Source: Gammaproteobacteria bacterium
GTDB taxonomy: Bacteria; Pseudomonadota; Gammaproteobacteria; UBA4575
Assembly: GCA_965227695.1 (NCBI GenBank)
Contig: OZ245760.1
Location: 88,580-152,579, forward strand
DNA: 64,000 nucleotides
Direction: 5' to 3'
Shown here: positions 27,241-39,689 of the stretch, in pieces
Position numbering within the stretch: position 1 is the stretch's first letter
Layout of the letters: every line of letters starts with the position of its first letter
The notes under the pieces: model-generated
What the model saw: only the letters and a program-made list of their open reading frames with translations
Databases searched by the model: none
Told to the model about the DNA's origin: nothing
Position numbers and translations under genes: made by a program

Positions 27241-28332
27241 TTAGTTATTCTGAATAACAATCTTGGGAAATTTGGCACTGTAATCTTTACCCTGGGATGC
27301 CAGTTTAGCGGCGGTTTTGCGTGCAATCTCCTTGTATATTTCGGTCACACGGCTGTCAGGTGTGGCAATCACGGTGGGTTCACCCCCATCAACCTGTTCT
27401 CGGATATTCATATCCAGTGGCAACTTGCCAAGCAACTCCACGTCATTCTCCAGCGCCATCTTTTCGCCGCCTCCAGTGCCAAATATAGACTCTTCATGTC
27501 CACATTGGCTACAGATATGTACGCTCATATTTTCAACAATACCAAGTACCGGAACCTCTACCTTTTCAAACATTTTCAGCCCTTTGCGAGCATCAAGCAA
27601 GGCAATATCCTGTGGCGTAGTCACAATCACCGCGCCACTGACAGGGATCTTTTGGGCCAGGGTCAGTTGCACATCACCGGTGCCGGGTGGCAGATCAACG
27701 ATCAGGTAGTCGAGATCTCTCCAGCGTGTGTCATTCAGTAATTGCTCCAGCGCCTGCGTCACCATGGGTCCTCGCCAGATCATCGGTGTTTCTTCATCAA
27801 TAAGAAAACCAATTGACATCGCCTGTATGCCATGGCCCATCATTGGCTCCAGGCTCTTGCCATCACTGGACTCGGGCTGGCCGGAAACACCCAGCATGCG
27901 GGGCTGACTTGGGCCATAAATGTCGGCGTCAAGAATGCCTACACTGGCGCCTTCTGCAGCCAGTGCCAGTGCCAGATTGACGGCTGTGGTTGATTTCCCC
28001 ACGCCTCCCTTGCCGGAAGCCACAGCAATAACATTTTTAATATTCTCCAGCGGCTTGAGACTTTTCTGGACCGAGTGCGCCTTGATATCCCAGTTAACTG
28101 CAATATCCACCTGATTGACGCCCTCTAATTGACTGACTTTGTCATTAATCAGGCTTGCCAGTGTTTCACGTATACTTTTTGCCGGATAGCCGAGCTCAAT
28201 ATCGATACTGACCTTGTCACCCTCAACGCGTATATCTTTAACGGCCTTGGAAGCCATAAAATTTTTGCCGGTATTCGGATCTTCTATTGTTTTCAGGGTA
28301 TCTTCAACTTGCTCTACGCTGACACTCGCCAT
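27241..28332 (-). CDS. apbC: Fe-S cluster carrier ATPase ApbC/Mrp
   Basis: Walker A SGKGGVGKST, CxxC motif (CSQCGH), N-terminal MIP18-like domain. Confidence 0.85.
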   Translation of the reverse strand: MASVSVEQVEDTLKTIEDPNTGKNFMASKAVKDIRVEGDKVSIDIELGYPAKSIRETLASLINDKVSQLEGVNQVDIAVNWDIKAHSVQKSLKPLENIKNVIAVASGKGGVGKSTTAVNLALALAAEGASVGILDADIYGPSQPRMLGVSGQPESSDGKSLEPMMGHGIQAMSIGFLIDEETPMIWRGPMVTQALEQLLNDTRWRDLDYLIVDLPPGTGDVQLTLAQKIPVSGAVIVTTPQDIALLDARKGLKMFEKVEVPVLGIVENMSVHICSQCGHEESIFGTGGGEKMALENDVELLGKLPLDMNIREQVDGGEPTVIATPDSRVTEIYKEIARKTAAKLASQGKDYSAKFPKIVIQNN

Positions 28333-28501
28333 AGGGGAATCCTTTATTATTAATCTATTGATCAAGACGACGAGTTAACCACTCCGGGCCCCGGCTGCCT
28401 AGCCCCTGATCGAGATATTTGCCGGCTACCCCTTTCATCTAGCCGCGTTATGAGGAAGCTGGTAAGGTACGCGCTCAATCAGTACTTGGTTACATAAACA
28501 C

Positions 28502-30526
28502 GTGGATATTAGAAGAATTTTAGTTACCAGTGCATTACCCTATGCGAATGGCTCCATTCATCTGGGACATCTCGTAGAGTACATACAGACAGATATCTGG
28601 GTGCGTTTTCAGAAAATGTGCGGACATGAATGCATCTATGTCTGTGCCGACGATGCGCACGGAACACCAATTATGTTGCGCGCACAACAGCAAGGAGTGA
28701 CTCCCGAAGAACTGATTGCTGACACCAAAAAGGAACACGAGCAGGATTTCTCAGATTTCCATATTTCCTTTGATAATTTCCACAGTACTCACTCCGATGA
28801 GAACCATTATTTCTCAACCGAAATTTTCAGAACCCTGCAACAAAACGATTACATAAAAACAGATATCGTCACGGATCTCTTTGATCCACAGGAAAAAGTA
28901 TTTTTACCCGACCGCTTTGTGCGTGGTACATGTCCAAAATGCCACGCCGAAGATCAATACGGGGATAACTGCGAAGCCTGTGGTGCGACCTACAGCCCCG
29001 CTGACTTGATAAACCCCCGTTCGGCACTGAGCGGCAGCCAACCAGTGCAAAAAGAGAACTTGCACTACTTTTTCAGGCTCAGCGCGCTGGAACCAGCCCT
29101 GCGGGAATGGACCCAGTCGGGACGACTGCAACCTGAAATTGCCAATAAAATTTCTGAGTGGTTTACCGGCGGTCTGCAAGACTGGGATATCTCGCGGGAT
29201 GCACCTTATTTTGGCTTTGAAATCCCCGATGCGCCGGGCAAATATTTTTACGTCTGGCTGGATGCACCGATTGGCTACATGGCCAGTTTCAAGCACTACT
29301 GTGACCGTACAGGTGTTGATTTTGGCGATTACTGGAAGCCGGATAGCCAGGCCGAGCTATACCACTTTATCGGCAAAGACATTGCTTACTTCCATACCCT
29401 GTTCTGGCCCGCAATGCTGATGGGCTCGGGATGGCGTACACCCACCAGTGTTTTTTGCCATGGATTCCTGACTGTCAACGGGCAAAAAATGTCCAAATCG
29501 CGTGGCACGTTCATTAAGGCCAGGACTTACCTGAACCACCTGGCACCGGAATACCTGCGATATTACTTTGCTGCCAAATTAAATGATGGCATCTCTGACA
29601 TTGACCTGAACCTCGATGATTTCCAGCAACGTGTCAATAGTGACGTGGTAGGCAAAGTCGTCAATATTGCCAGCCGCTGCGCAGGATTTATCAACAAAAA
29701 ATATGCGTCTCAATTAACAGATCAATTTAATTCGGCAGAGACAAAAGAAGCGTTCGATGCGGCTGTTAGCTACAGTGATGCCATTAAAGAGTGTTATGAA
29801 AACAGAAAATACTCTGAGGCCATAAGGATCATAATGACTATTGCAGATTCTGCTAATCAGGTCATAGACAAAAACAAACCATGGGAACGCATAAAAAGCG
29901 AGCATAACCAAGAAGAAGTACAGCAAGTGTGCAGCTTTGGCATTAATGTCTTTCGACTTCTTATAGGATATTTAAAACCGGTAATGCCGCAACTTGCAGC
30001 ACAGTCTGAAGACTTTTTAAACAGTAAAGCGACCTGGAATGACCTGGCCTGCGGACAACCTCTCCCTGCCGGACATACGATTAAAAAATTTAAGCCTCTT
30101 ATAACCCGAATCGAGAAACAGGCGATCGAGAACATGGTTGAAGAAAGCAAACAGGTCACGACTCTTAAGGCACCCGATCCAATTTCCGAGCAAATCTCGT
30201 TTGATGATTTTACCAGACTGGATTTGCGTGTCGCACGTATTGTCAGTGCAAAACTGGTAGAAGGTGCTGATAAACTCGTTCAACTGACCCTGGACCTGGG
30301 TGAACCTGCCGGTGGCATACAAAAAAATGTTTTTGCCGGGATTAAAAGTGCTTACAGCCCCGAGGACCTCGAGGGCAAACTTGTTGTGATGGTCGCAAAC
30401 CTGGCACCACGTAAAATGCGGTTTGGTTTATCCGAAGGCATGGTTCTGGCCGCCAGCGGGGAAGACAGTGGGCTTTTCCTGATACACCCCGATCGCGGAG
30501 CGTCGCCCGGAATGCGTGTAAAGTAA
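28502..30526 (+). CDS. metG: Methionine--tRNA ligase
   Basis: HLGH motif, zinc knuckle [24 protein letters not shown]-terminal tRNA-binding domain; divergent from apbC as in E. coli. Confidence 0.95.
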
Positions 30527-30532
30527 ACATCG

Positions 30533-31162
30533 ATGCAGGTACCGGTTTCCTATAGCAAAACACTGGCAGTGATCGATGAAAATCACTGTATAGGGTGCAC
30601 ATTATGCATCAAGGCATGTCCCTTTGATGCCATCATTGGCGCATCAAAACATCTTCATACTGTTGTGCAATCTTACTGTACTGGTTGCAAATTATGTATT
30701 GAACCCTGTCCTGTGGACTGCATCACCATGCAGGAAAATCCTGCGGCAAATCAGCTGAAACCGGAAAAACCCGACTTCGCTTCTCACCAGGCCTGCATCC
30801 ATTGTAATGAATGTGTGACAGTGTGTCCTGCTCACATCAAGCCGGATTTTTTATACTCTCTCATTGCCAAACAGAAACTCCATAGCGCCCAGCACAATGC
30901 TGTCGAATCATGCACATTGTGTGGCAAATGCGACAATGCGTGTCCAAGCAAAATACCTTTGACATATTCTTTCTCGTACGCAATCGAAACGCTTAAACTG
31001 AAAAAAAACCGCAAAAATTTCACCATTGGCTGCAAACAGCGCAGACAATCGAGAGACAGAAGAATCAATCAACAGAAAAGAAAACAGCAGGCACAGTTGT
31101 CCAGCAATAAGCAAAATTTGGCCGCCAAGATAGAAGCACTCAAAAATGCGTCCTCTGGTTAA
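30533..31162 (+). CDS. Polyferredoxin related to the C-terminal half of RnfB/RsxB, with four CxxCxxCxxxCP motifs and a basic tail
   Basis: [26 protein letters not shown]...[12 protein letters not shown] closely matches RsxB ferredoxin domain; two further 4Fe-4S motifs; lies where rnf operon precedes nth in other gammaproteobacteria. Confidence 0.6.
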
Positions 31163-31188
31163 TTTTTCAATCATAGTAGCCAAACAAT

Positions 31189-31824
31189 GTGAATAAAGAA
31201 AAACGCATTAAAATTTTTCGCCGCTTATACCAGCAGAACCCTCATCCTACCACTGAGCTTCATTACAACAATGTTTTTGAACTACTGATCTCGGTAATGC
31301 TCTCTGCGCAGGCCACCGACATCAGTGTCAATAAAGCCACCGGCCCTTTATTCGGTGTCGCGAACAGTCCTGAAAAAATACTCCAGCTTGGTGAGAAAAA
31401 ATTAAGGAACCATATCAAAACCATCGGACTGTACAATACAAAAGCCAAAAACATTATCCAGACTTGCAAGATTTTAGTTGAAAAGCACCATAGCCATGTT
31501 CCACAGGATCGCTCAGCACTCGAAGCATTGCCAGGTGTCGGACGCAAAACTGCAAATGTGGTTTTAAATACCGGCTTCGGTCTTCCAACCATTGCAGTCG
31601 ATACTCATATTTTTCGTGTCAGTAACCGGACCGGTATTGCACCTGGTAAAAATGTGACTGAAGTTGAAAAACGCTTAATGCGGCTGGTGCCCGATGAATT
31701 CAAGCAGGATGCTCACCACTGGTTGATACTACTCGGACGCTATACTTGTCTTGCACGCAAACCAAAATGCCCTGACTGCGTAATAAATGACCTTTGCGAA
31801 TACAAAAAGAAAACAATAGTTTAA
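31189..31824 (+). CDS. nth: Endonuclease III
   Basis: HhH-GPD (LPGVGRKTANVVL) and C-terminal 4Fe-4S Cys ligands (C-x6-C-x2-C-x5-C). Confidence 0.9.
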   Translation: MNKEKRIKIFRRLYQQNPHPTTELHYNNVFELLISVMLSAQATDISVNKATGPLFGVANSPEKILQLGEKKLRNHIKTIGLYNTKAKNIIQTCKILVEKHHSHVPQDRSALEALPGVGRKTANVVLNTGFGLPTIAVDTHIFRVSNRTGIAPGKNVTEVEKRLMRLVPDEFKQDAHHWLILLGRYTCLARKPKCPDCVINDLCEYKKKTIV

Positions 31825-32060
31825 TCGGATCGTTTGAACACTGCCTATGTCCGTATCATTGCCATGGAACTCAAACACACCTTGAAACTCTAATTTACAT
31901 GGTCGGGCTATAACCCTGATTATATATAAGGCTATTTATCCCTTCTTTGTCATTGTAATATAATGCGACTGCGAAGGGTCTTTTACTCACTGGAAGCCTG
32001 CTTCCAGACGATACACTCAATAAAATCTCGAACCAACTTAAACTCGTATGGAGATACTCA

Positions 32061-32396
32061 ATGTCAAAAAAAAATGAACTCAAGCCTATCGCTGCCGCTG
32101 TCGGCGCTGCATTAACAGCCAGCGTCATTGCACTACCGACTGCAAACGCAGATGCCAACCCATTTGCCATGACAGAGCTGTCTTCAGGCTACATGGTTGC
32201 GGATAGCCATGAAGGCAAGTGTGGCGAAGGGAAATGCGGCGAAGGCAAGTGTGGCGAAGGGAAATGCGGCGAAGGCAAGTGCGGTGAAGGGAAATGCGGC
32301 GAAGGCAAGTGCGGTGAAGGCAAGTGCGGTGAAGGGAAATGCGGTGAAGAAAAGTCCGGTGAAGGGAAATGCGGCGAAGGTAAGTGCGGCTCTTAA
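32061..32396 (+). CDS. Secreted Cys-repeat RiPP-like precursor: Sec signal peptide plus 12 tandem G-K-C-G-E pentapeptides
   Basis: Signal peptide ending ALPTANA, then HEGKCGE(GKCGE)n...GKCGS; followed by DoxX, DUF692/MNIO and DUF2063 genes. Confidence 0.7.
   Translation: MSKKNELKPIAAAVGAALTASVIALPTANADANPFAMTELSSGYMVADSHEGKCGEGKCGEGKCGEGKCGEGKCGEGKCGEGKCGEGKCGEGKCGEEKSGEGKCGEGKCGS
32211..32390 (+). repeat. Tandem 15-nt (30-nt super-unit) in-frame repeat encoding the GKCGE units
   Basis: gaaggcaagtgtggc / gaagggaaatgcggc alternate with synonymous differences. Confidence 0.9.
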
Positions 32397-32416
32397 GCAG
32401 GACCAGATAACCCGAA

Positions 32417-32446
32417 GTCAAGGTGTTAAAAAAACACCTTGACTTT
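32417..32446 (+). terminator. Stem-loop (about 11-bp stem) followed by TTT after the precursor stop; candidate intrinsic terminator/attenuator
   Basis: gtcaaggtgtt-aaaaa-aacaccttgac then ttt. Confidence 0.45.
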
Positions 32447-32740
32447 AATCAATCACTAAAATGCAATCACACTGTAATATAGCACATAGCCGACTGTATC
32501 CTGATCTTGCCAGTGAGTCATCGACTTGCTTTTAAGGCTTTTAATTCCGGAACGCACAACAGAACATTATCAACCGTTATATCAGTCATTTTCCCCACCC
32601 AAAATTGATGAATTGGCCAATCCGTGATGTAAGAAAATACCAACCATCTCAGGTCTCATAAGTGGCAAGACTATATGCCATAACTTTTACCACAGCACAG
32701 ATGCAGCCACTTGAAGCACTGCTACCATTTGGGAGTCACT

Positions 32741-33355
32741 ATGATCAGCCTCATTGATAATATTAATCACATTTTCGACAAACTTCGTGCACTGGACTTT
32801 TTAGCTCCCTTGTTGCTGCGTTTATTTCTTGCCCCAATAATGATTTATGCCGGACTTTCTAAACTTGGCGATGTAAGCAATACCGCCCTGTGGTTTGAGC
32901 ACTCGCTTAACCTGCCTCTTCCAACCTTGATGGTTTATCTTTCAGGAGGCGCCGAGTTCTTCGGCGGTATCGCACTGCTTATAGGTTTTGCAGTGCGCTG
33001 GGTAGCCATCCCGCTGATGATTACGATGGTTGTTGCTGCAACCACGGCCCACTGGGAGAATGGCTGGCATCAGTTCCACGAAGCCAATCAAACGGTTCCC
33101 TGGGAGTGGCGTACCGACCTGATTGAAGAGGGAAACAAACGCAAATCCATCATAAAGAATGTACTGCGAGAGCACGCTAATTATCAATATTTGAGTGAAA
33201 CCGGCAGCATTACCATTCTTAAAAATGGCATTGAAGTGGCCACGGCTTATTTCATTATGTTACTGGCGCTATTCTTTACGGGAGCAGGTAGGTTTTTAAG
33301 CGTCGACTATTACTTATCTCTAATGTACCCTAGAAATTCGATTTCAAATAGTTGA
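32741..33355 (+). CDS. DoxX-family membrane protein with C-terminal extension
   Basis: DoxX-type 4-TM core (LLLRLFLAPIMIYAGLSKL...); GGGAG RBS before ATG at 32741 (ORF opens at 32711). Confidence 0.6.
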   Translation: MISLIDNINHIFDKLRALDFLAPLLLRLFLAPIMIYAGLSKLGDVSNTALWFEHSLNLPLPTLMVYLSGGAEFFGGIALLIGFAVRWVAIPLMITMVVAATTAHWENGWHQFHEANQTVPWEWRTDLIEEGNKRKSIIKNVLREHANYQYLSETGSITILKNGIEVATAYFIMLLALFFTGAGRFLSVDYYLSLMYPRNSISNS

Positions 33356-33370
33356 ATCTGGCCAATAATC

Positions 33371-34243
33371 ATGGAACATCATGTGCACGCTTCACAGTAC
33401 CGGGTAAACGGGGCAGGTCTTGGGCTCAGACGTGGGCATATGCTGGACACGCTGCTGGAAGCAAACCCCTCACAAATACAGTTTATGGAAGTCGCGCCCG
33501 AAAACTGGATTGGTGTTGGCGGACGCCTTGGAAAACGTTTTCAAGAGTACACAGAACGTTACCCTTTTGTCACGCATGGTTTATCATTATCGATCGGTGG
33601 ACCCACACCAATTGATACCAACCTGGTGAAAGATATCAGGGCATTTCTGGAACAACACAAAATAATACAGTACACAGAGCACCTTACTTACTGCTCAGAC
33701 ACGGGCCATCTATATGACTTGATGCCAATCCCTTTTACGTCTGAAGCGGTTCACTACGTTGCTGACCGCATTAACCAGGTGCAGGATATTCTTGGTCAGC
33801 GCATCGCGATGGAAAATGCCTCATATTACGCAGCACCAGGTCAGGAAATGGAAGAAATCGACTTTATCAAAGCCGTGCTGGAAGAGTCCGATTGTCAACT
33901 GCTACTCGACATTAACAACATCTATGTTAATTCTGTCAACCACAACTATGACCCAGTGGCGTTCCTGTCAGCGCTGCCCAAAGAACGTATTACTTATGCA
34001 CATATTGCAGGACACTATAACGAAGCTGAGGATTTAATTGTCGATACCCACGGCGCAGATGTCATTGATCCGGTATGGAACCTGCTAGATAAAGCTTACG
34101 AAGTGTTTGGTGTCTTCCCCACGCTCCTGGAACGGGATTTCAACATCCCGGAAGTCCCTGTTCTATTGAAAGAGGTAAACCAGATATGCACTTTACAAAG
34201 CAAGTGGGCGCAACCCGACAACATGATACAAGTACATGCCTGA
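33371..34243 (+). CDS. DUF692 (UPF0276) family protein, MNIO-type RiPP maturase candidate
   Basis: TIM-barrel DUF692 hallmarks (GAGLGLRRGH, ENWIGVGG, conserved His/Asp/Glu metal ligands); 290 aa. Confidence 0.75.
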   Translation: MEHHVHASQYRVNGAGLGLRRGHMLDTLLEANPSQIQFMEVAPENWIGVGGRLGKRFQEYTERYPFVTHGLSLSIGGPTPIDTNLVKDIRAFLEQHKIIQYTEHLTYCSDTGHLYDLMPIPFTSEAVHYVADRINQVQDILGQRIAMENASYYAAPGQEMEEIDFIKAVLEESDCQLLLDINNIYVNSVNHNYDPVAFLSALPKERITYAHIAGHYNEAEDLIVDTHGADVIDPVWNLLDKAYEVFGVFPTLLERDFNIPEVPVLLKEVNQICTLQSKWAQPDNMIQVHA

Positions 34244-35006
34244 TACCGACCCGGGTTTTAAAAATATACAATATCGCTTTACCGCTCATTTAAGAGACCC
34301 GGAGAACAACCCGGCTCCTGGTGAGATTGAAGACCGCCGAATGGAAATATATCGGGGCCTAATCTACCGGAATATACAGAATTTTTTGTCAAATGCATTC
34401 CCCGTCACCAGAATGCTTTATAGTGATGATCACTGGCATAAGCTGGTAAGGCATTTTTTCTCTGCTCACCAATGCCATTCACCTTACTTTAAAGACATTT
34501 CAAAAGAATTCATTGATTATTTAACTAATGAACATCAAGCACAACCTGAAGATCCACCATTTCTATACGAGCTGGCCCACTACGAATGGATCGAAATTGT
34601 CCTGACACTGATGGATGGCGAGATTGATTGGAGTCGAATTAACAAAAAGGGCAATCTGCTGAAGGATATCCCGATACTGACCCCTTTTATGCAGCTGCAA
34701 AGTTACGAGTATCCCGTGCATAAAATTACACCGGATTTTCAGCCAGAAACACCAGGCCAAAGTCCTACTTTCATACTCATATATCGAGACTTAAAAGATA
34801 AAGTTGGATTTCTGGAGCTAAACCCTATCACTGCACGATTGGTTGAACTGATCAGTGAAAATCAATCACGGACAAGTGAGGACATATTAACCAGCATCGC
34901 CGAGCAGATACCCGGATTAACAAAAGAGTCTGTTCTCCATGGTGGACATATCGCCCTGAATGAATTATTCGGGAAAGATATCTTTTTAGGGACAAGAAAG
35001 GCTTAA
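34236..35006 (+). CDS. DUF2063-family protein (MbnC/BufC-like RiPP recognition partner)
   Basis: 256 aa, overlaps DUF692 gene by 8 nt; conserved pairing of DUF692 with DUF2063. Confidence 0.65.
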   Translation: MPDTDPGFKNIQYRFTAHLRDPENNPAPGEIEDRRMEIYRGLIYRNIQNFLSNAFPVTRMLYSDDHWHKLVRHFFSAHQCHSPYFKDISKEFIDYLTNEHQAQPEDPPFLYELAHYEWIEIVLTLMDGEIDWSRINKKGNLLKDIPILTPFMQLQSYEYPVHKITPDFQPETPGQSPTFILIYRDLKDKVGFLELNPITARLVELISENQSRTSEDILTSIAEQIPGLTKESVLHGGHIALNELFGKDIFLGTRKA

Positions 35007-35038
35007 CCCAATGCAGCAAATTTTCTGAATCGAATCAT

Positions 35039-36058
35039 TTACCCCAGGCGGGCAATAATATTTTCAGCAAAGGTGGTGGTACTCGCGCTACCACCCAAAT
35101 CTACAGTCAGTCCCTCACCACTTCTGAGCTGTGCATCCAGTGCCTCTCGTAATCGCGTGGCCTTATCCGCCTGATCGACATGGTCAAGCATCAAGGCAGC
35201 CGCCAGCATTAGCGCCGTCGGGTTGGCGATTTTTTTACCTGCAATATCTGGAGCAGAACCATGTACCGCTTCAAATATGGAAGCATCCCGACCAATATTC
35301 CCGGACGGTGCCAGACCAAGGCCGCCAACAAGTCCTGCGATTTCATCAGATAGAATATCGCCAAACATATTGGTGGTGATCAGCACGTCGAACTGGTTGG
35401 GATTCAGGACCAGCTGCATAGCGCAGTTATCCACGATTCTCTCTTCGACTTCGATTTGCCCTTCATATTTCTTGCCTAGTTCTGTGGCTGTTTCCAGAAA
35501 CAGCCCTGTTAATTTTTTAAGGATATTCGCCTTATGGACAATGGTCACTTTTTTGCGCTTATTCTTGATCGCCCAGTTGAATGCAAACTCCGCAAAGCGG
35601 GTGCAACCATAGCGGGTAATTATTCCTGAAGCCTCAGCGACGGCTTTTGGATCACCGGCAATCGGAATATAGTGCTCGACCCCTACATAAAGTCCTTCAA
35701 GGTTTTCGCGGATCAAAACAAGGTCTACGTTTTCAAATCGGCCACCCAGCAGGAAGCTTCTGGCAGGTCTTACATTGGCAAACAATTCAAATTCCTCTCG
35801 CAAACGCACGTTGATAGATCTGAAGCCACTGCCGACTGGTGTTGTCAGGGGCCCTTTTAGCGCTAATTTGGTGCGGCGAATACTTTCCAGCGTTGCCTGG
35901 GGCAGCGGATCTCCACAAGCCTGCTCGGCTGCCACGCCGGCCAGCTGCTCATCCCAATCAAAGGATGCACCAAGGGCATCGAGTACCTTAAGTGTCGCGT
36001 TTACGATCTCAGGGCCGATACCATCACCCGGTATTAAAGTGGCAGGGATTTTTTGCAT
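35039..36058 (-). CDS. Isocitrate/isopropylmalate dehydrogenase family enzyme, likely NAD-dependent isocitrate (or homoisocitrate) dehydrogenase
   Basis: 339 aa, IPGDGIGPE N-terminus and metal/substrate motifs (NMFGDILSD) resembling IDH3/HICDH-type short enzymes. Confidence 0.6.
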   Translation of the reverse strand: MQKIPATLIPGDGIGPEIVNATLKVLDALGASFDWDEQLAGVAAEQACGDPLPQATLESIRRTKLALKGPLTTPVGSGFRSINVRLREEFELFANVRPARSFLLGGRFENVDLVLIRENLEGLYVGVEHYIPIAGDPKAVAEASGIITRYGCTRFAEFAFNWAIKNKRKKVTIVHKANILKKLTGLFLETATELGKKYEGQIEVEERIVDNCAMQLVLNPNQFDVLITTNMFGDILSDEIAGLVGGLGLAPSGNIGRDASIFEAVHGSAPDIAGKKIANPTALMLAAALMLDHVDQADKATRLREALDAQLRSGEGLTVDLGGSASTTTFAENIIARLG

Positions 36059-36281
36059 GTGGCTCTATCCTTGTATTATTGGCGATAGCGATGGATAAAA
36101 ATTAAACTTCCCGTGTCAGGTATTAATATTATCTCTTTTATTTATGTTTATTAAAACCAATTTTCGCGGTAGATATTAGGCTTAATATCGTTTGAATGGT
36201 TAACAAGACTGGCGAGATCGAAACTGTTTATACACAGGGGCGCAGGTAGAATAGCGGGTGTTTATTGATCATTCGCACGGT

Positions 36282-36446
36282 TTACTGATCCTGATTTTTG
36301 ACAAAATCACGAATGAATCTTCTGATTTCTCGTGCTGCACTTGTATCGAGCTCATCACATAAAGACACAAAGTCATCACGCTCTTTTTGATTAATCCGAA
36401 TAACAAGCTGACTATCTTTACTTTTATTCTTTTTCTTGTCGCCCAT
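36282..36446 (-). CDS. Unlisted 54-aa ORF, ribbon-helix-helix (CopG/Arc)-like small DNA-binding protein
   Basis: Translated by hand: MGDKKKNKSKDSQLVIRINQKERDDFVSLCDELDTSAAREIRRFIRDFVKNQDQ; beta-strand then two helices; ATATAC direct repeats upstream. Confidence 0.4.
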   Translation of the reverse strand: MGDKKKNKSKDSQLVIRINQKERDDFVSLCDELDTSAAREIRRFIRDFVKNQDQ

Positions 36447-36467
36447 AACAGATGCACGGTTTAATTA

Positions 36468-36495
36468 GATATACAATGTATATACATTATATACC
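36468..36495. promoter_or_regulatory. Three direct (T)ATATAC repeats at 10-bp spacing immediately upstream of the RHH-like ORF; candidate operator
   Basis: gATATACaatgTATATACattATATAC. Confidence 0.35.
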
Positions 36496-36922
36496 TTTCA
36501 TCCTCGACAGGTCAATTTCATTAACAGACTTCGTTTAGCCTTAAACACCTATAAAAAAGCATCAAACTAGCTTGTTATTTGAAAATCATCCTGGGGTGAA
36601 AGCCTGAATCGCATTTTAACAAACCATAATTTTACACATAAATGATTATAATTGTGGTTCATTACGATCAGATGAATTTAATATAATCAGACATGTATGA
36701 TGTTTCAGCAAATGAAGCAACACGGCGCACAGGGCCTGGCGCGCCATGTTGATTTTATTGGCTCTATTGGTCTCAGCAGAGCACGATATCGAAGATCGAT
36801 ACCACATTGCTTTTTAGCGATGAAAGACTATCAGATCAACCCCGTTTTTTAATTTCGGGTGATTGACATTTACGTGAATTATTTATTAATTGCACATTAA
36901 CAGTGTGCCTGCAAAACGATCG

Positions 36923-38245
36923 CTATATCAATGATCCTGTCAGATCATATTCACCTGCCTCCTCGATACGGACTGGTACAATATCACCCACATTACATTG
37001 ACGATGGCCATAAACATGTACAGTCCCATCTATCTCGGGCGCATCTGCATAACTTCTGCCAATGGCAACTTCTTCATTCACTTCATCAATAAGTACTTCT
37101 AATACACGACCAACTTTCTGTTCAAGTTTATCTTCACTGATTTCCTGCTGAAGCTGCATTAACTTATGCCAGCGTTGCTGTTTAATTTCGTCTTCAATCT
37201 GCCCATCAAGCAGATTCGACTGCGCACCCTCCACGGGAGAATACTGAAAACAGCCCACACGGTCGAGCCTGGCTTCACGCAAAAAATCAAGCAATTCATC
37301 AAAATCACTGTCTGTTTCTCCAGGAAAACCAACAATGAATGTGCTACGTATGACAATATCTGGGCATCGTTCACGCCAGCGCTGTATATGATCGAGCGTC
37401 TTTTCACTGCAGGCCGGGCGCCGCATTCTTTTCAGGACACGATGGCTCGCGTGCTGAAAGGGAACATCAATGTATGGCAGGATTTTTCCCTCGGCCATCA
37501 AAGGGATTACATCTTCAACATGCGGATATGGATAAACATAATGCAGACGAATCCAGATACCCAGTTCGCCCAGCGCATTACATAAATCAAGCAAGTTATT
37601 GTGATAAATCCTGCCATTCCATAATTGAGTTTCATGCCTGATATCCAGACCATACGCACTGGTATCCTGCGAAATTACCAACAGCTCTTTTACACCAGCA
37701 GCAGCCAGCTGCTCCGCTTCATGCATCACTTCATGTAGCGGGCGACTTTTTAACTTGCCCCGCATTGATGGAATAATGCAAAAGGAACACTTGTGGTTGC
37801 ACCCCTCCGAAATTTTAATATAGGCATAATGTTCTGGTGTAAGCTTGATTCCCTGGGGAGGCGTCAGATTTATATACGGATTGTGATTCACAGGAACTGC
37901 CTGGCGCACCGCGGTCATGACTGTATCAACATCCTGAGGGCCAGAAATGCTCAGAACATCTCGTGGTATTGACTTTAAATCTCCCTGATTGACGCCCATA
38001 CAGCCGGTGACAATCACCTTACCATTAACACTCAGCGCCTCGCTGATGACTTCAAGGGATTCCTGCTTGGCAGCATCAATGAAGCCACAGGTGTTAACAA
38101 TAACAGCATCAGCGCCTTCATAACTGTCTGAGATCAGATAACCTTCACTGCGCAGCTGTGTAATAATTCTTTCAGAGTCAACCAGTGCTTTAGGGCAACC
38201 GAGGCTGATCATTCCAATGGCAGGATGACTGTTTTTGTGGGACAT
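36923..38245 (-). CDS. rimO: Ribosomal protein S12 methylthiotransferase
   Basis: MTTase N-domain, radical-SAM CxxxCxxC (CNHKCSFC), TRAM domain; 440 aa. Confidence 0.9.
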
Positions 38246-38333
38246 TATTATTGATTACGGGTAGTACTTATTTATATACATATATAGTAGGCTATTATTG
38301 TATTGATTCAGAATCTTTTATAACCAAAAACAT

Positions 38334-39689
38334 ATGGGGCAAATATTCTTTTCCGCAGCTCACAAATCCTCTGGTAAAACCGTTATTACAGCAGGTGTTT
38401 GCGCCGCTCTCACCGCACAGAATAAAACTGTACAGCCTTTCAAGAAAGGGCCAGATTATATCGATCCGATGTGGCTGGCAACAGCATCCCGGCGACACTG
38501 CTACAATCTGGACTTCTGGACACAATCCAATCAGGAAATCCTTGAACTATATTACCGAAAAAGTTCATCCGCAGATATCTCAATCACTGAAGCCAATAAA
38601 GGTTTGTATGACGGTCTCGATCTTGACGGCAGCAATAGCAATGCAGAATTAGCCAAGCTGTTGAAAGCACCGGTCGTGCTTATCCTGGATTGCCGCGGCA
38701 CAACCCGCGGGATTGCCCCGTTATTGCAGGGTTATCAGCACTTTGATCCTGGTGTCAACATACAGGGGGTTATTTTAAATTTTGTAGGTGGCAACCGCCA
38801 CGAAAGCAAACTTCGCAGTGTGGTTGAGCATTACACCGATATAAAGGTGTTAGGCAGTATCCAGAAACATGGTGATATGGCCCTTGAAGAGAGATACTTA
38901 GGACTCATGCCCAGCAATGAAACAGACAAAGCCAGGGAAAAAACGCAAGCACTTGCTAATATAATCGCACAACAGGTTGACCTTAATGCCATCCTTGCCA
39001 TGAGTACCGATATCCCTGCCGTCAATATTACCCCCGGCAACTCGAACTATCGCTGCAACTTGCGTATTGGTTATGCACGCGACAAAGCATTCGGCTTTTA
39101 CTATCCTGACGATCTCGAAACTTTCAGGCAATTGGGAGCAACACTTGTACCCTTCAACACACTCACAGATAAATGCTTACCGGATGTCGATGGAGTCTTT
39201 TTTGGTGGTGGATTCCCCGAGAAATGCATGCAATCACTCGAAGCCAATAAGCCTATGCGCGATCATGTTTACCAGGTGCTCAACGCAGGCATGCCGGCAT
39301 ATGCTGAATGCGGGGGACTGATGTATTTATGTAATCAGATTCACTATGGGGGGCAAAGCGCCAAGATGGTCGGGCTGATTGATACCGATTGTGAAATGAC
39401 GCCCAGGCCACAAGGGCGTGGCTATATACAGTTCAATGCAAATCAGTCTGCATTCTGGCCGGACTCACAGCCCCGTTTTATCAATGCCCATGAGTTCCAT
39501 TATTCCAGATTAGTGAACTTGCCCGCAGATACAAGCATGGTGTTTGATATTGTACGCGGACAAGGCATTATGAATCAAAAGGATGGTATTCATATCCACA
39601 ATACCCTTGCCTGCTATTCTCATCAACGTCACACTAGCAGCAACCCGTGGATAGAACAATTTCTCAAATTCGTTGAATCACGTCGATAA
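38334..39689 (+). CDS. Cobyrinate a,c-diamide synthase family amidotransferase (CbiA/CobB; DsrN-like possible)
   Basis: N-terminal P-loop ATPase domain (SGKTVITAG), C-terminal GATase1 domain with Cys (AECGGLMYL); stands alone. Confidence 0.7.
   Translation: MGQIFFSAAHKSSGKTVITAGVCAALTAQNKTVQPFKKGPDYIDPMWLATASRRHCYNLDFWTQSNQEILELYYRKSSSADISITEANKGLYDGLDLDGSNSNAELAKLLKAPVVLILDCRGTTRGIAPLLQGYQHFDPGVNIQGVILNFVGGNRHESKLRSVVEHYTDIKVLGSIQKHGDMALEERYLGLMPSNETDKAREKTQALANIIAQQVDLNAILAMSTDIPAVNITPGNSNYRCNLRIGYARDKAFGFYYPDDLETFRQLGATLVPFNTLTDKCLPDVDGVFFGGGFPEKCMQSLEANKPMRDHVYQVLNAGMPAYAECGGLMYLCNQIHYGGQSAKMVGLIDTDCEMTPRPQGRGYIQFNANQSAFWPDSQPRFINAHEFHYSRLVNLPADTSMVFDIVRGQGIMNQKDGIHIHNTLACYSHQRHTSSNPWIEQFLKFVESRR

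Follow-up and report, generated by a model that had tools for sequence, protein, structure and literature searches.

The window analysed here is a 64,000-nt stretch of DNA, in which four genes and their associated elements lie at the following positions.

31954..31964, plus strand: probable -10 region of hvfA, TGTAATATAAT (alignments of upstream regions)
32050..32053, plus strand: Shine-Dalgarno sequence GGAG, 7 nt 5' of the hvfA start codon (read from the sequence)
32061..32396, plus strand: hvfA-family precursor gene, 111 aa, 11 Cys (NCBIfam NF050137 and homologues)
32061..32150, plus strand: predicted Sec-type signal peptide, residues 1-30 (sequence features)
32151..32210, plus strand: conserved non-repeat segment DANPFAMTELSSGYMVADSH, 20 aa, NPF...SGYM (motif conservation)
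32211..32390, plus strand: 12 contiguous 15-nt units, 11 encoding EGKCG and unit 10 encoding EEKSG (Tandem Repeats Finder and unit table)
32415..32445, plus strand: perfect 13-bp hairpin followed by TTTAAT, 19 nt 3' of the hvfA stop codon
32741..33355, plus strand: hvfX, DoxX-like membrane protein, 204 aa (NF050144, Pfam DoxX, hydropathy)
33371..34243, plus strand: hvfB, MNIO (DUF692) peptide maturase, 290 aa (NF003818, PF05114, PDB 3BWW)
34236..35006, plus strand: hvfC, DUF2063/RRE partner protein, 256 aa (NF050145, PF09836, PF22106)

The product of the open reading frame (ORF) at 32061-32396(+) reads MSKKNELKPIAAAVGAALTASVIALPTANA up to the predicted cleavage site, then DANPFAMTELSSGYMVADSH and finally (EGKCG)9-EEKSG-(EGKCG)2-S. 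The original prediction had described a secreted ORF whose entire mature region consists of pentapeptide repeats; the 12 tandem units and 11 Cys were found as described, but the mature region is not all repeat, since the NPF...SGYM segment precedes the array. By sequence rules, an N-terminal Sec-type signal peptide is predicted, with a basic n-region (MSKKNELKP), a hydrophobic core and A-N-A at the cleavage site, and the signal peptide of HvfA has been seen experimentally to be cleaved (PMC11252979). Of 120 homologues, 114 have an A-x-A with NPF 1-8 residues behind it and 108 have the motif NPF-x4-5-[LMH]-x-[SGAN]GY, while the distance from NPF to the first Cys motif is 19-21 residues in 100 of 115. 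By analogy with published systems (PMC11252979, PMC12538549), the 20-aa segment is probably the recognition sequence for the RRE domain of HvfC. The precursor scored 58.9 bits with NF050137 ('HvfA family'; cut-off 19.5) but 49.7 bits with the HvfA equivalog model NF050188, under its cut-off of 95, and is therefore a member of the HvfA family rather than an orthologue of HvfA of NTHi. AlphaFold2 in single-sequence mode gave no fold (mean pLDDT 43), an uninformative result that is consistent with disorder.

The one unusual trait of the locus is its uninterrupted 12-unit array. Tandem Repeats Finder delimited it to 32211-32390 with a period of 15 and 12.0 copies; the EEKSG unit lies at 32346-32360, and no spacers separate the units. 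The units pair up into an underlying 30-nt period (EGKCGEGKCG), identity being 0.90 at 30 nt versus 0.81 at 15 nt. Among the 120 closest homologues this spacerless array is the longest. Eight or more contiguous units, with up to 12 contiguous KCG motifs, occur on six metagenome contigs with three other leader types (L087-L092). A near-identical contig, L081, carries 9 units versus 12 at the present locus, so that the unit count is either polymorphic or affected by assembly uncertainty.

Each of the four products exceeds the curated NCBIfam cut-off for its family (HvfA, HvfX, HvfB or HvfC), and Pfam agrees. The DoxX, DUF692 and DUF2063 genes that had been placed downstream on the same strand were confirmed by their respective models. 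HvfX scored 185.2 bits with NF050144 (cut-off 80), in agreement with Pfam DoxX. Its start is most likely the ATG at 32741 (204 aa, with GGGAG 6 nt upstream) rather than the TTG at 32711; the Shine-Dalgarno sequence and start codon are kept in relatives, and the public protein collection holds the 204-aa form. Hydropathy indicates hydrophobic stretches at residues ~15-42, ~63-103 (room for two helices) and ~159-189, the latter two separated by a His/Trp-rich hydrophilic stretch of ~55 residues. What had been taken for a long C-terminal extension of the DoxX protein is a family trait, since positions 1-164 of the 165 in the HvfX model match residues 30-202. HvfB scored 439.6 bits with NF003818 (cut-off 360) and matched the DUF692/MNIO model PF05114 (E = 3.9e-102) and PDB 3BWW (E = 6.7e-72). 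Against the iron-ligand set of MNIOs (PMC9060507), equivalents of all nine ligands are present (H69, H104, E148, D180, N183, H211, D225, H227 and E254). Site-3 residues are essential in characterised HvfB. HvfC scored 293.6 bits with NF050145 (cut-off 142), with matches to both PF09836 and PF22106 as well as to PDB 3DEE (E = 3.4e-9). The gap of 15 nt between hvfX and hvfB and the overlap of 8 nt between hvfB and hvfC indicate co-translation.

Alignments of upstream regions showed the GGAG ahead of hvfA to be invariant among relatives, as is the TGTAATA core of the -10-like box in diverged ones, and this box is probably the -10 region of an hvfA promoter. A generic promoter (sigma-70) and terminator scan found sites no more numerous than in shuffles and picked out neither the box nor the hairpin behind hvfA. 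The hairpin (-23 kcal/mol, z -6.4) lacks a proper U-tract and did not satisfy the T-tract rule used in that scan; canonical terminators lie 3' of hvfA in related loci. It is probably a weak terminator or attenuator, or else an mRNA-stabilising stem. The possibility that a perfect inverted repeat at 31990-32007, CTGGAAGC-CT-GCTTCCAG, acts as an operator was rejected, since the dyad is not conserved in relatives. An Rfam scan of 28000-39000 (E <= 1) returned no match.

The gene order A-X-B-C, which had been regarded as a variation, is shared by 14 of 80 related loci and is one of four common orders. Relatives share both the locus and the synteny metG, ferredoxin, nth, hvfA, hvfX, hvfB, hvfC, and no copper-related or regulatory genes were found beside the locus. 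A Glu_synthase-family gene lies upstream of hvfX in 23 of the 80 related loci. When the 344-bp spacer between hvfA and hvfX was compared by BLASTN with six loci of this kind, no remnant of that gene was seen, and the Glu_synthase protein had no significant TBLASTN match anywhere in the window. The composition profile is free of GC or skew anomalies, and nothing in it marks the region as an island of recent acquisition.

What the locus itself shows is its gene content, the family membership of its products and the conservation of residues. Our best explanation, which we hold to be very probable, is that hvfA-hvfX-hvfB-hvfC form a cluster of the oxazolin or Buf_EGKCG ('captophorin', Lys-Cys group) ribosomal metallophore family, native to an uncultured Thiotrichales-like gammaproteobacterium and operating by an oxazolin-type mechanism. 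Curated HMMs and the literature support the kind of locus that had been predicted: one for an MNIO-type RiPP metallophore, with a Cys-repeat precursor exported by Sec, a DUF692 enzyme, a DUF2063 partner and DoxX.

Expression, modification, export and metal binding would follow those of characterised homologues. A promoter of its own would drive hvfA and a strong Shine-Dalgarno site its translation, with the hairpin curbing read-through such that precursor message would exceed enzyme message. In the cytoplasm, the HvfC RRE domain would bind the NPF...SGYM segment and offer the repeat array to HvfB, expected to be an O2-dependent mixed-valent di-iron enzyme, which would convert each K-C-G Cys by four-electron oxidation to a 5-thiooxazole (-4 Da each) at up to 11 sites, for a total of about -44 Da. 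The HvfA/EGKCG peptide was indeed found to lose 4 Da per Cys, to require both B and C and to bind Cu(I), with only ~35% of HvfA fully modified (PMC11252979). The 5-thiooxazole assignment, together with the double repeat as minimal substrate, comes from later work (PMC12668002; bioRxiv 10.64898/2026.06.05.730506), and this product is expected here instead of the heterocycle and thioamide chemistry first proposed. The modified peptide would be exported via Sec and cut after Ala30, yielding an 81-aa periplasmic or secreted peptide, probably without further processing because no protease gene is present. Its thiooxazole N/S donors would bind Cu(I), resulting in copper sequestration or buffering with a capacity of perhaps 5-11 Cu per peptide, by analogy with HvfA (6 sites, ~6 Cu). 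HvfX may be an accessory membrane protein, possibly redox-active, on which modification itself would not depend; DoxX is dispensable for modification in bufferin 1 (PMC11626156).

The reading of the repeat ORF as no real gene, but a spurious or non-coding tandem repeat, is effectively refuted. The exact 111-aa precursor is absent from a public collection of 15 billion proteins that contains the products of its three neighbours, and antisense and off-frame ORFs also span the array. However, all 111 codon-position differences in pairwise comparison of the 11 EGKCG units are synonymous, which, together with conservation of the leader in hundreds of hvfA homologues, marks the ORF as no chance feature; its Shine-Dalgarno sequence and signal peptide are also conserved, and it matches a curated HMM and 394 homologues of similar length. 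The low-complexity precursor was apparently missed by gene callers, and such clusters may consequently be annotated as orphan MNIO operons. It is very unlikely that a genuine peptide acts unmodified, as a periplasmic metallothionein-like Cys-thiolate sponge for copper or other metals, with the MNIO and its partner serving another substrate or being dispensable. Unmodified HvfA does retain 2-3 Cu(I), yet only the modified form competed with BCA (PMC11252979); physical linkage is loose, since hvfX-hvfB-hvfC occur without an adjacent precursor in 19 of the 80 related loci, but HvfB here has the full ligand set and shares a syntenic block with the precursor, and genomes with EGKCG precursors almost always contain MNIO and partner genes (PMC12452194). 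Conversion of the Cys residues to oxazolone/thioamide pairs, as in methanobactin, is likewise highly improbable. HvfA was at first assigned such pairs (PMC11252979), and their mass change, -4 Da, is identical to that for 5-thiooxazole, but alkylation-assisted HMBC and selective 13C/15N labelling led the authors of that work, as well as an independent group, to reassign the product (PMC12668002; bioRxiv 10.64898/2026.06.05.730506), and the HvfB studied here is close to the HvfB/BufB group and far from MbnB (TIGR04159, 45.5 bits, under the cut-off of 325).

The purpose of the same chemistry leaves more room for alternatives. A role other than copper detoxification is possible, if somewhat unlikely: the peptide might acquire copper or deliver it to periplasmic cuproenzymes, protect against thiol or oxidative stress, or act at the surface or on a host like the NTHi virulence factor. 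The Microbulbifer cluster (mmr) showed no copper induction and only weak to marginal protection (PMC12538549), HvfA was found as a host-invasion factor (PMC11252979), MNIO-PME1 clusters have been tied to oxidative stress (PMC12668002), and no copper-resistance genes flank the present locus. On the other hand, every characterised EGKCG product binds Cu(I) (PMC12668002, PMC11252979, PMC12538549), and the related bufferins guard against copper stress (PMC11626156). A more speculative and doubtful proposal, going beyond the oxazolin-type reading, is that the (EGKCG)n array is a hypervariable module that tunes copper capacity and that its run of 11 thiooxazoles forms a cooperative polynuclear Cu(I) chain or cluster. 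Unit number may change between near-identical strains by slippage or unequal recombination, as between the present locus and L081, and a polynuclear-Cu(I) product of an uninterrupted array might be of another type than the products examined to date, with their discrete two-heterocycle cassettes. The hypervariable-module proposal also takes similar long arrays to have originated independently with at least three other leader types (L087-L092).

With the copper-binding oxazolin-type assignment preferred, the locus is an ordinary addition to the HvfA/oxazolin family with an unusually long uninterrupted repeat. About 2,000 members (HvfA/oxazolin precursors) have been catalogued and four characterised. 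The earlier belief that EGKCG-repeat precursors were known only computationally is out of date: oxazolin/HvfA (2024; PMC11252979), fontiphorin and gonophorin (2025; PMC12668002) and bulbicupramide (2025; PMC12538549) have been produced and studied by MS and NMR, and their binding of Cu has been demonstrated. The locus adds an environmental Thiotrichales-like member to this family and matters little beyond correct annotation; its spacerless 11-Cys array would nevertheless provide a clean model substrate for the questions of MNIO processivity and Cu stoichiometry per heterocycle raised by oxazolin and fontiphorin.

The bufferin- or methanobactin-like system originally envisaged can be narrowed to the HvfABCX type. 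Methanobactin (MbnABC) clusters resemble the present locus in that their MNIO modifies Cys and has an identical set of iron ligands, and their product binds copper, as is expected here. They employ an MbnC partner, a short leader-cleaved precursor without a Sec signal and oxazolone/thioamide chemistry, whereas here the partner is DUF2063, the precursor is large and of Sec type, and 5-thiooxazoles are expected; membership was rejected on the MbnB score given above, the DUF2063 partner and the signal peptide. Bufferins (BufABCD, Caulobacter; PMC11626156) have in common with the present locus a Sec-exported precursor, a closely related MNIO, a DUF2063 partner and an optional DoxX, and their 5-thiooxazole chemistry and copper-buffering role would be shared by analogy. 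Their precursors (DUF2282, Buf_6/12Cys) are unrelated in sequence to the one described here, for which no Pfam match, DUF2282 included, was obtained, and unlike bufferin loci this one has no sigma/anti-sigma genes. Bufferin membership was rejected on the lack of a Pfam match and an HvfB score of 261.3 bits with BufB model NF050167, under its cut-off of 310.

The NTHi hvfXABC/oxazolin locus (NTHI1440-1444; PMC11252979) comprises the same four gene families, with the EGKCGEGKCG double motif as repeat unit in both. NTHi HvfA has three AEGKCGEGKCG cassettes with spacers, six modified Cys and an N-terminal disulfide pair, whereas the 12 contiguous units here have neither spacers nor extra Cys. Judging from the locus tags, DoxX (NTHI1440) comes before the precursor (NTHI1441) in NTHi, in contrast to A-X-B-C, and NTHi is a pathogen whereas the probable host here, a Thiotrichales-like bacterium, is free-living. 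Fontiphorin (FonA/FonBC, Fontimonas thermophila) and gonophorin (Neisseria gonorrhoeae) are 'captophorins' of the Lys-Cys group, in which an MNIO-PME1 pair converts EGKCG 5-mers to Cu-binding 5-thiooxazoles (PMC12668002). The requirement of FonBC for two adjacent repeats agrees with the 30-nt double-unit periodicity observed here; FonA has seven sites, while the present array, known from sequence alone, is longer and uninterrupted. Bulbicupramide (MmrABC, Microbulbifer; PMC12538549) has a conserved leader and di-Cys cassettes that are separated by spacers, in contrast to the spacerless array, and the only genes described in its paper are mmrA-C, with no mention of DoxX, whereas a DoxX-like gene is present here. 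A Microbulbifer protein (P0117) is among the precursor homologues. The 5-8 Cys in EGKCG units of bulbicupramide vary in number by strain, a variation that parallels the 9 units of L081 versus 12 at the present locus.

The precursor gene of the locus is followed on the same strand by three further genes, with the repeat array placed as listed.

32061-32396, plus strand: hvfA, precursor ORF, 111 aa (ORF list and raw sequence)
32211-32390: single repeat array within hvfA, period 15, 12.0 copies (Tandem Repeats Finder)
32711-33355, plus strand: hvfX, DoxX-like ORF, 214 aa as first listed (ORF list)
33371-34243, plus strand: hvfB, 290-aa protein (ORF list)
34236-35006, plus strand: hvfC, 256-aa protein, overlapping hvfB by 8 nt (ORF list)

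The hvfA product reads MSKKNELKPIAAAVGAALTASVIALPTANA / DANPFAMTELSSGYMVADSH / (EGKCG)9-EEKSG-(EGKCG)2-S. The ORF, its 12.0-copy array, its 11 Cys and the three same-strand ORFs downstream were all as described in the original prediction, which had also taken the mature region to be entirely repeat; since a conserved 20-residue non-repeat segment lies N-terminal to the array, the mature region is not wholly repeat. All of the 111 pairwise codon differences between the 11 EGKCG units are synonymous (111/111), and deviation at the protein level is limited to unit 10 (EEKSG); the array is under selection at the protein level. Self-identity of the array DNA was 0.90 at a 30-nt offset versus 0.81 at 15 nt, so the evolutionary unit is the double motif EGKCGEGKCG. 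AlphaFold2 gave the precursor a pLDDT of 43. The exact 111-aa precursor was missing from a 15-billion-protein collection in which HvfX, HvfB and HvfC of the same 2.73-Mb contig are present; gene calling in the source annotation probably missed the low-complexity hvfA.

Families were assigned by NCBIfam models with curated cut-offs. The precursor scored 58.9 bits against NF050137 (HvfA family; cut-off 19.5, passed) and 49.7 bits against the HvfA equivalog NF050188 (cut-off 95, not passed). The HMM searches proposed with the original prediction placed all three downstream proteins above their cut-offs: the DoxX-like protein with NF050144 (HvfX family; 185.2 bits, cut-off 80), the 290-aa protein with NF003818 (HvfB family MNIO; 439.6 bits, cut-off 360) and the 256-aa protein with NF050145 (HvfC; 293.6 bits, cut-off 142). 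The 290-aa protein did not pass the BufB (261.3 bits, cut-off 310) or MbnB (45.5 bits, cut-off 325) models. Pfam matches were DoxX, MbnB_TglH_ChrH (E = 3.9e-102) and DUF2063 plus NGO1945_C, and the closest solved structures were 3BWW for HvfB (E = 6.7e-72) and 3DEE for HvfC. The functional class first proposed, an MNIO-type RiPP metallophore-like locus, was right. The predicted start of the DoxX-like gene (32711) was moved to ATG 32741, most likely the true start, which has GGGAG 6 nt upstream and would give a 204-aa product; its Shine-Dalgarno sequence and start are kept in relatives, and the public protein collection holds the 204-aa form. Positions 1-164 of the 165 in the HvfX model align to residues 30-202 of the 214-aa ORF.

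The iron ligands of MbnB (H54, H90, E133, D163, N166, H192, D208, H210 and E239; PMC9060507) were transferred to HvfB through HMMER alignments, and 9/9 positions are kept (H69, H104, E148, D180, N183, H211, D225, H227 and E254). Site-3 residues are essential to HvfB (bioRxiv 10.64898/2026.07.17.739211). Every step of the proposed mechanism is drawn from homologues. HvfC would bind the leader of the precursor, and in the cytoplasm HvfB with O2 would oxidise each K-C-G Cys to a 5-thiooxazole; the peptide would then be exported via Sec and cleaved by signal peptidase after Ala30, and the 81-aa product would bind Cu(I). HvfX may serve as an accessory membrane protein; modification of bufferin 1 proceeds without DoxX (PMC11626156). 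Among the best 120 of 394 precursor homologues, 108 carry the leader motif NPF-x4-5-[LMH]-x-[SGAN]GY, and 100 of 115 have their first Cys motif beginning 19-21 residues past NPF. This NPF segment is likely the HvfC recognition sequence.

A GGAG lies 7 nt upstream of the hvfA start codon, and the core of a TGTAATATAAT box at 31954-31964 is invariant in diverged relatives. On the 3′ side of the hvfA stop there is a hairpin with a perfect 13-bp stem (32415-32445; -23 kcal/mol, z = -6.4), followed by only a weak T-tract; related loci have canonical terminators downstream of hvfA. From sequence signals we infer either that hvfA is transcribed as a separate unit at a higher level, with part of the transcription continuing into hvfXBC, or that an hvfXBC promoter lies in the 344-bp spacer. 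The 5′ region of hvfA also holds a perfect 8-bp inverted repeat, CTGGAAGC-CT-GCTTCCAG, at 31990-32007; of its two arms, relatives conserve only the left (GGAAGC), which makes a role as operator doubtful. An Rfam search of the locus region gave no match. Many ABC- and ABCX-type loci with hvfA directly next to hvfB (letters denoting hvfA, hvfX, hvfB and hvfC; for example L018:4990-5020, L037, L063 and L070) have, within the 70 nt that follow the hvfA stop, a CATGAAC...GTTCATG inverted repeat covering the hvfB start codon as well as codons 8-10. By sequestering the hvfB start, this repeat could control translation. The A-X-B-C arrangement of the window is without it.

A genome scan with HvfB returned at least 589 loci; among species genomes, the best was an uncultured Thiotrichales MAG (78% identity). 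The best 80 of these loci carried precursor, DoxX, MNIO and DUF2063 genes in several orders (ABC 20, XBC 19, ABCX 15, AXBC 14, BCX 6, a few others). A-X-B-C, once regarded as an added variation, is therefore common. Close relatives share a syntenic block of metG, an RnfB-like ferredoxin gene, nth, hvfA, hvfX, hvfB and hvfC; in the window, housekeeping genes flank the locus on both sides (dcd, apbC, metG, ferredoxin and nth; icd, rimO and cobB). Base composition at the locus is unremarkable, so it looks native to its host.

Several further observations concern the surroundings of hvf genes. Immediately 5′ of hvfX in 23/80 related loci is a gene of about 503 aa of the Glu_synthase family (PF01645, E = 6e-88; L001:2810-4320, where it is seemingly split in two ORFs, L002:2810-4321 and 21 others), which lies between hvfA and hvfX wherever those loci have hvfA. 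It is absent from the window, and no remnant of it was found in the hvfA-hvfX spacer there. The MNIO landscape paper does not mention this gene, which may represent an accessory component of hvf clusters that has gone unrecognised. Some relatives with XBC loci, L006 (OZ244849.1) among them, have nth directly adjoining hvfX and lack a precursor gene at that place; for L006, an HvfA-family protein (P0070) is apparently encoded elsewhere on its 2,045,000-bp chromosome, which suggests an unlinked, stand-alone precursor gene. In the window, a 54-aa ORF (MGDKKKNKSKDSQLVIRINQKERDDFVSLCDELDTSAAREIRRFIRDFVKNQDQ; 36282-36446, minus strand) lies in the AT-rich gap between icd and rimO. It had no NCBIfam match, but the near-identical assembly L086 has it annotated as a gene at the corresponding position.

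The contiguous KCG run in the window is 9, or 12 units counting the degenerate one; the longest strictly contiguous run was 6 in the best 120 of the 394 homologues and 3 across the 80 genome loci. A metagenome-wide pattern scan for at least 8 contiguous EGKCG units returned six contigs, whose leaders are of three other types; in one contig 12 KCG motifs are contiguous (HKCG, then 11 EGKCG). Arrays of such length without spacers are therefore rare, yet they recur. Over 31793-32755 the DNA of the window is almost the same as that of metagenome contig L081, which lacks 45 nt in frame, giving 9 units (L081:419-553) versus 12, and L086, a third near-identical assembly and the same locus at strain level, ends in the hvfA-hvfX spacer, 143 nt upstream of hvfX and about 200 nt from the array. 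The unit count is therefore either a copy-number polymorphism or uncertain through short-read assembly artefact.

In nontypeable H. influenzae, the hvf operon comprises genes for HvfX (a DoxX homologue), the HvfA precursor, the MNIO HvfB and its RRE partner HvfC; HvfA combines a Sec signal with three AEGKCGEGKCG motifs, its six Cys each lose 4 Da by the joint action of HvfB and HvfC, and about six Cu(I) are bound by the modified peptide, oxazolin (PMC11252979). First assigned as oxazolone/thioamide, the modification was subsequently revised to 5-thiooxazole (PMC12668002; bioRxiv 10.64898/2026.06.05.730506). Fontiphorin and gonophorin (PMC12668002) and bulbicupramide (PMC12538549) have also been characterised, so the earlier belief that EGKCG precursors were known only computationally is out of date. 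About 2,000 members of the Buf_EGKCG/oxazolin family are catalogued (31-506 residues, up to 58 Cys), in clusters that mix precursor, MNIO, DUF2063 and DoxX genes "in various combinations" (PMC12452194); across the family, these peptides may serve in detoxification, in acquisition or in some other role. The window locus belongs to this known, experimentally characterised kind of system, and its sole distinction is its unusually long uninterrupted repeat array.
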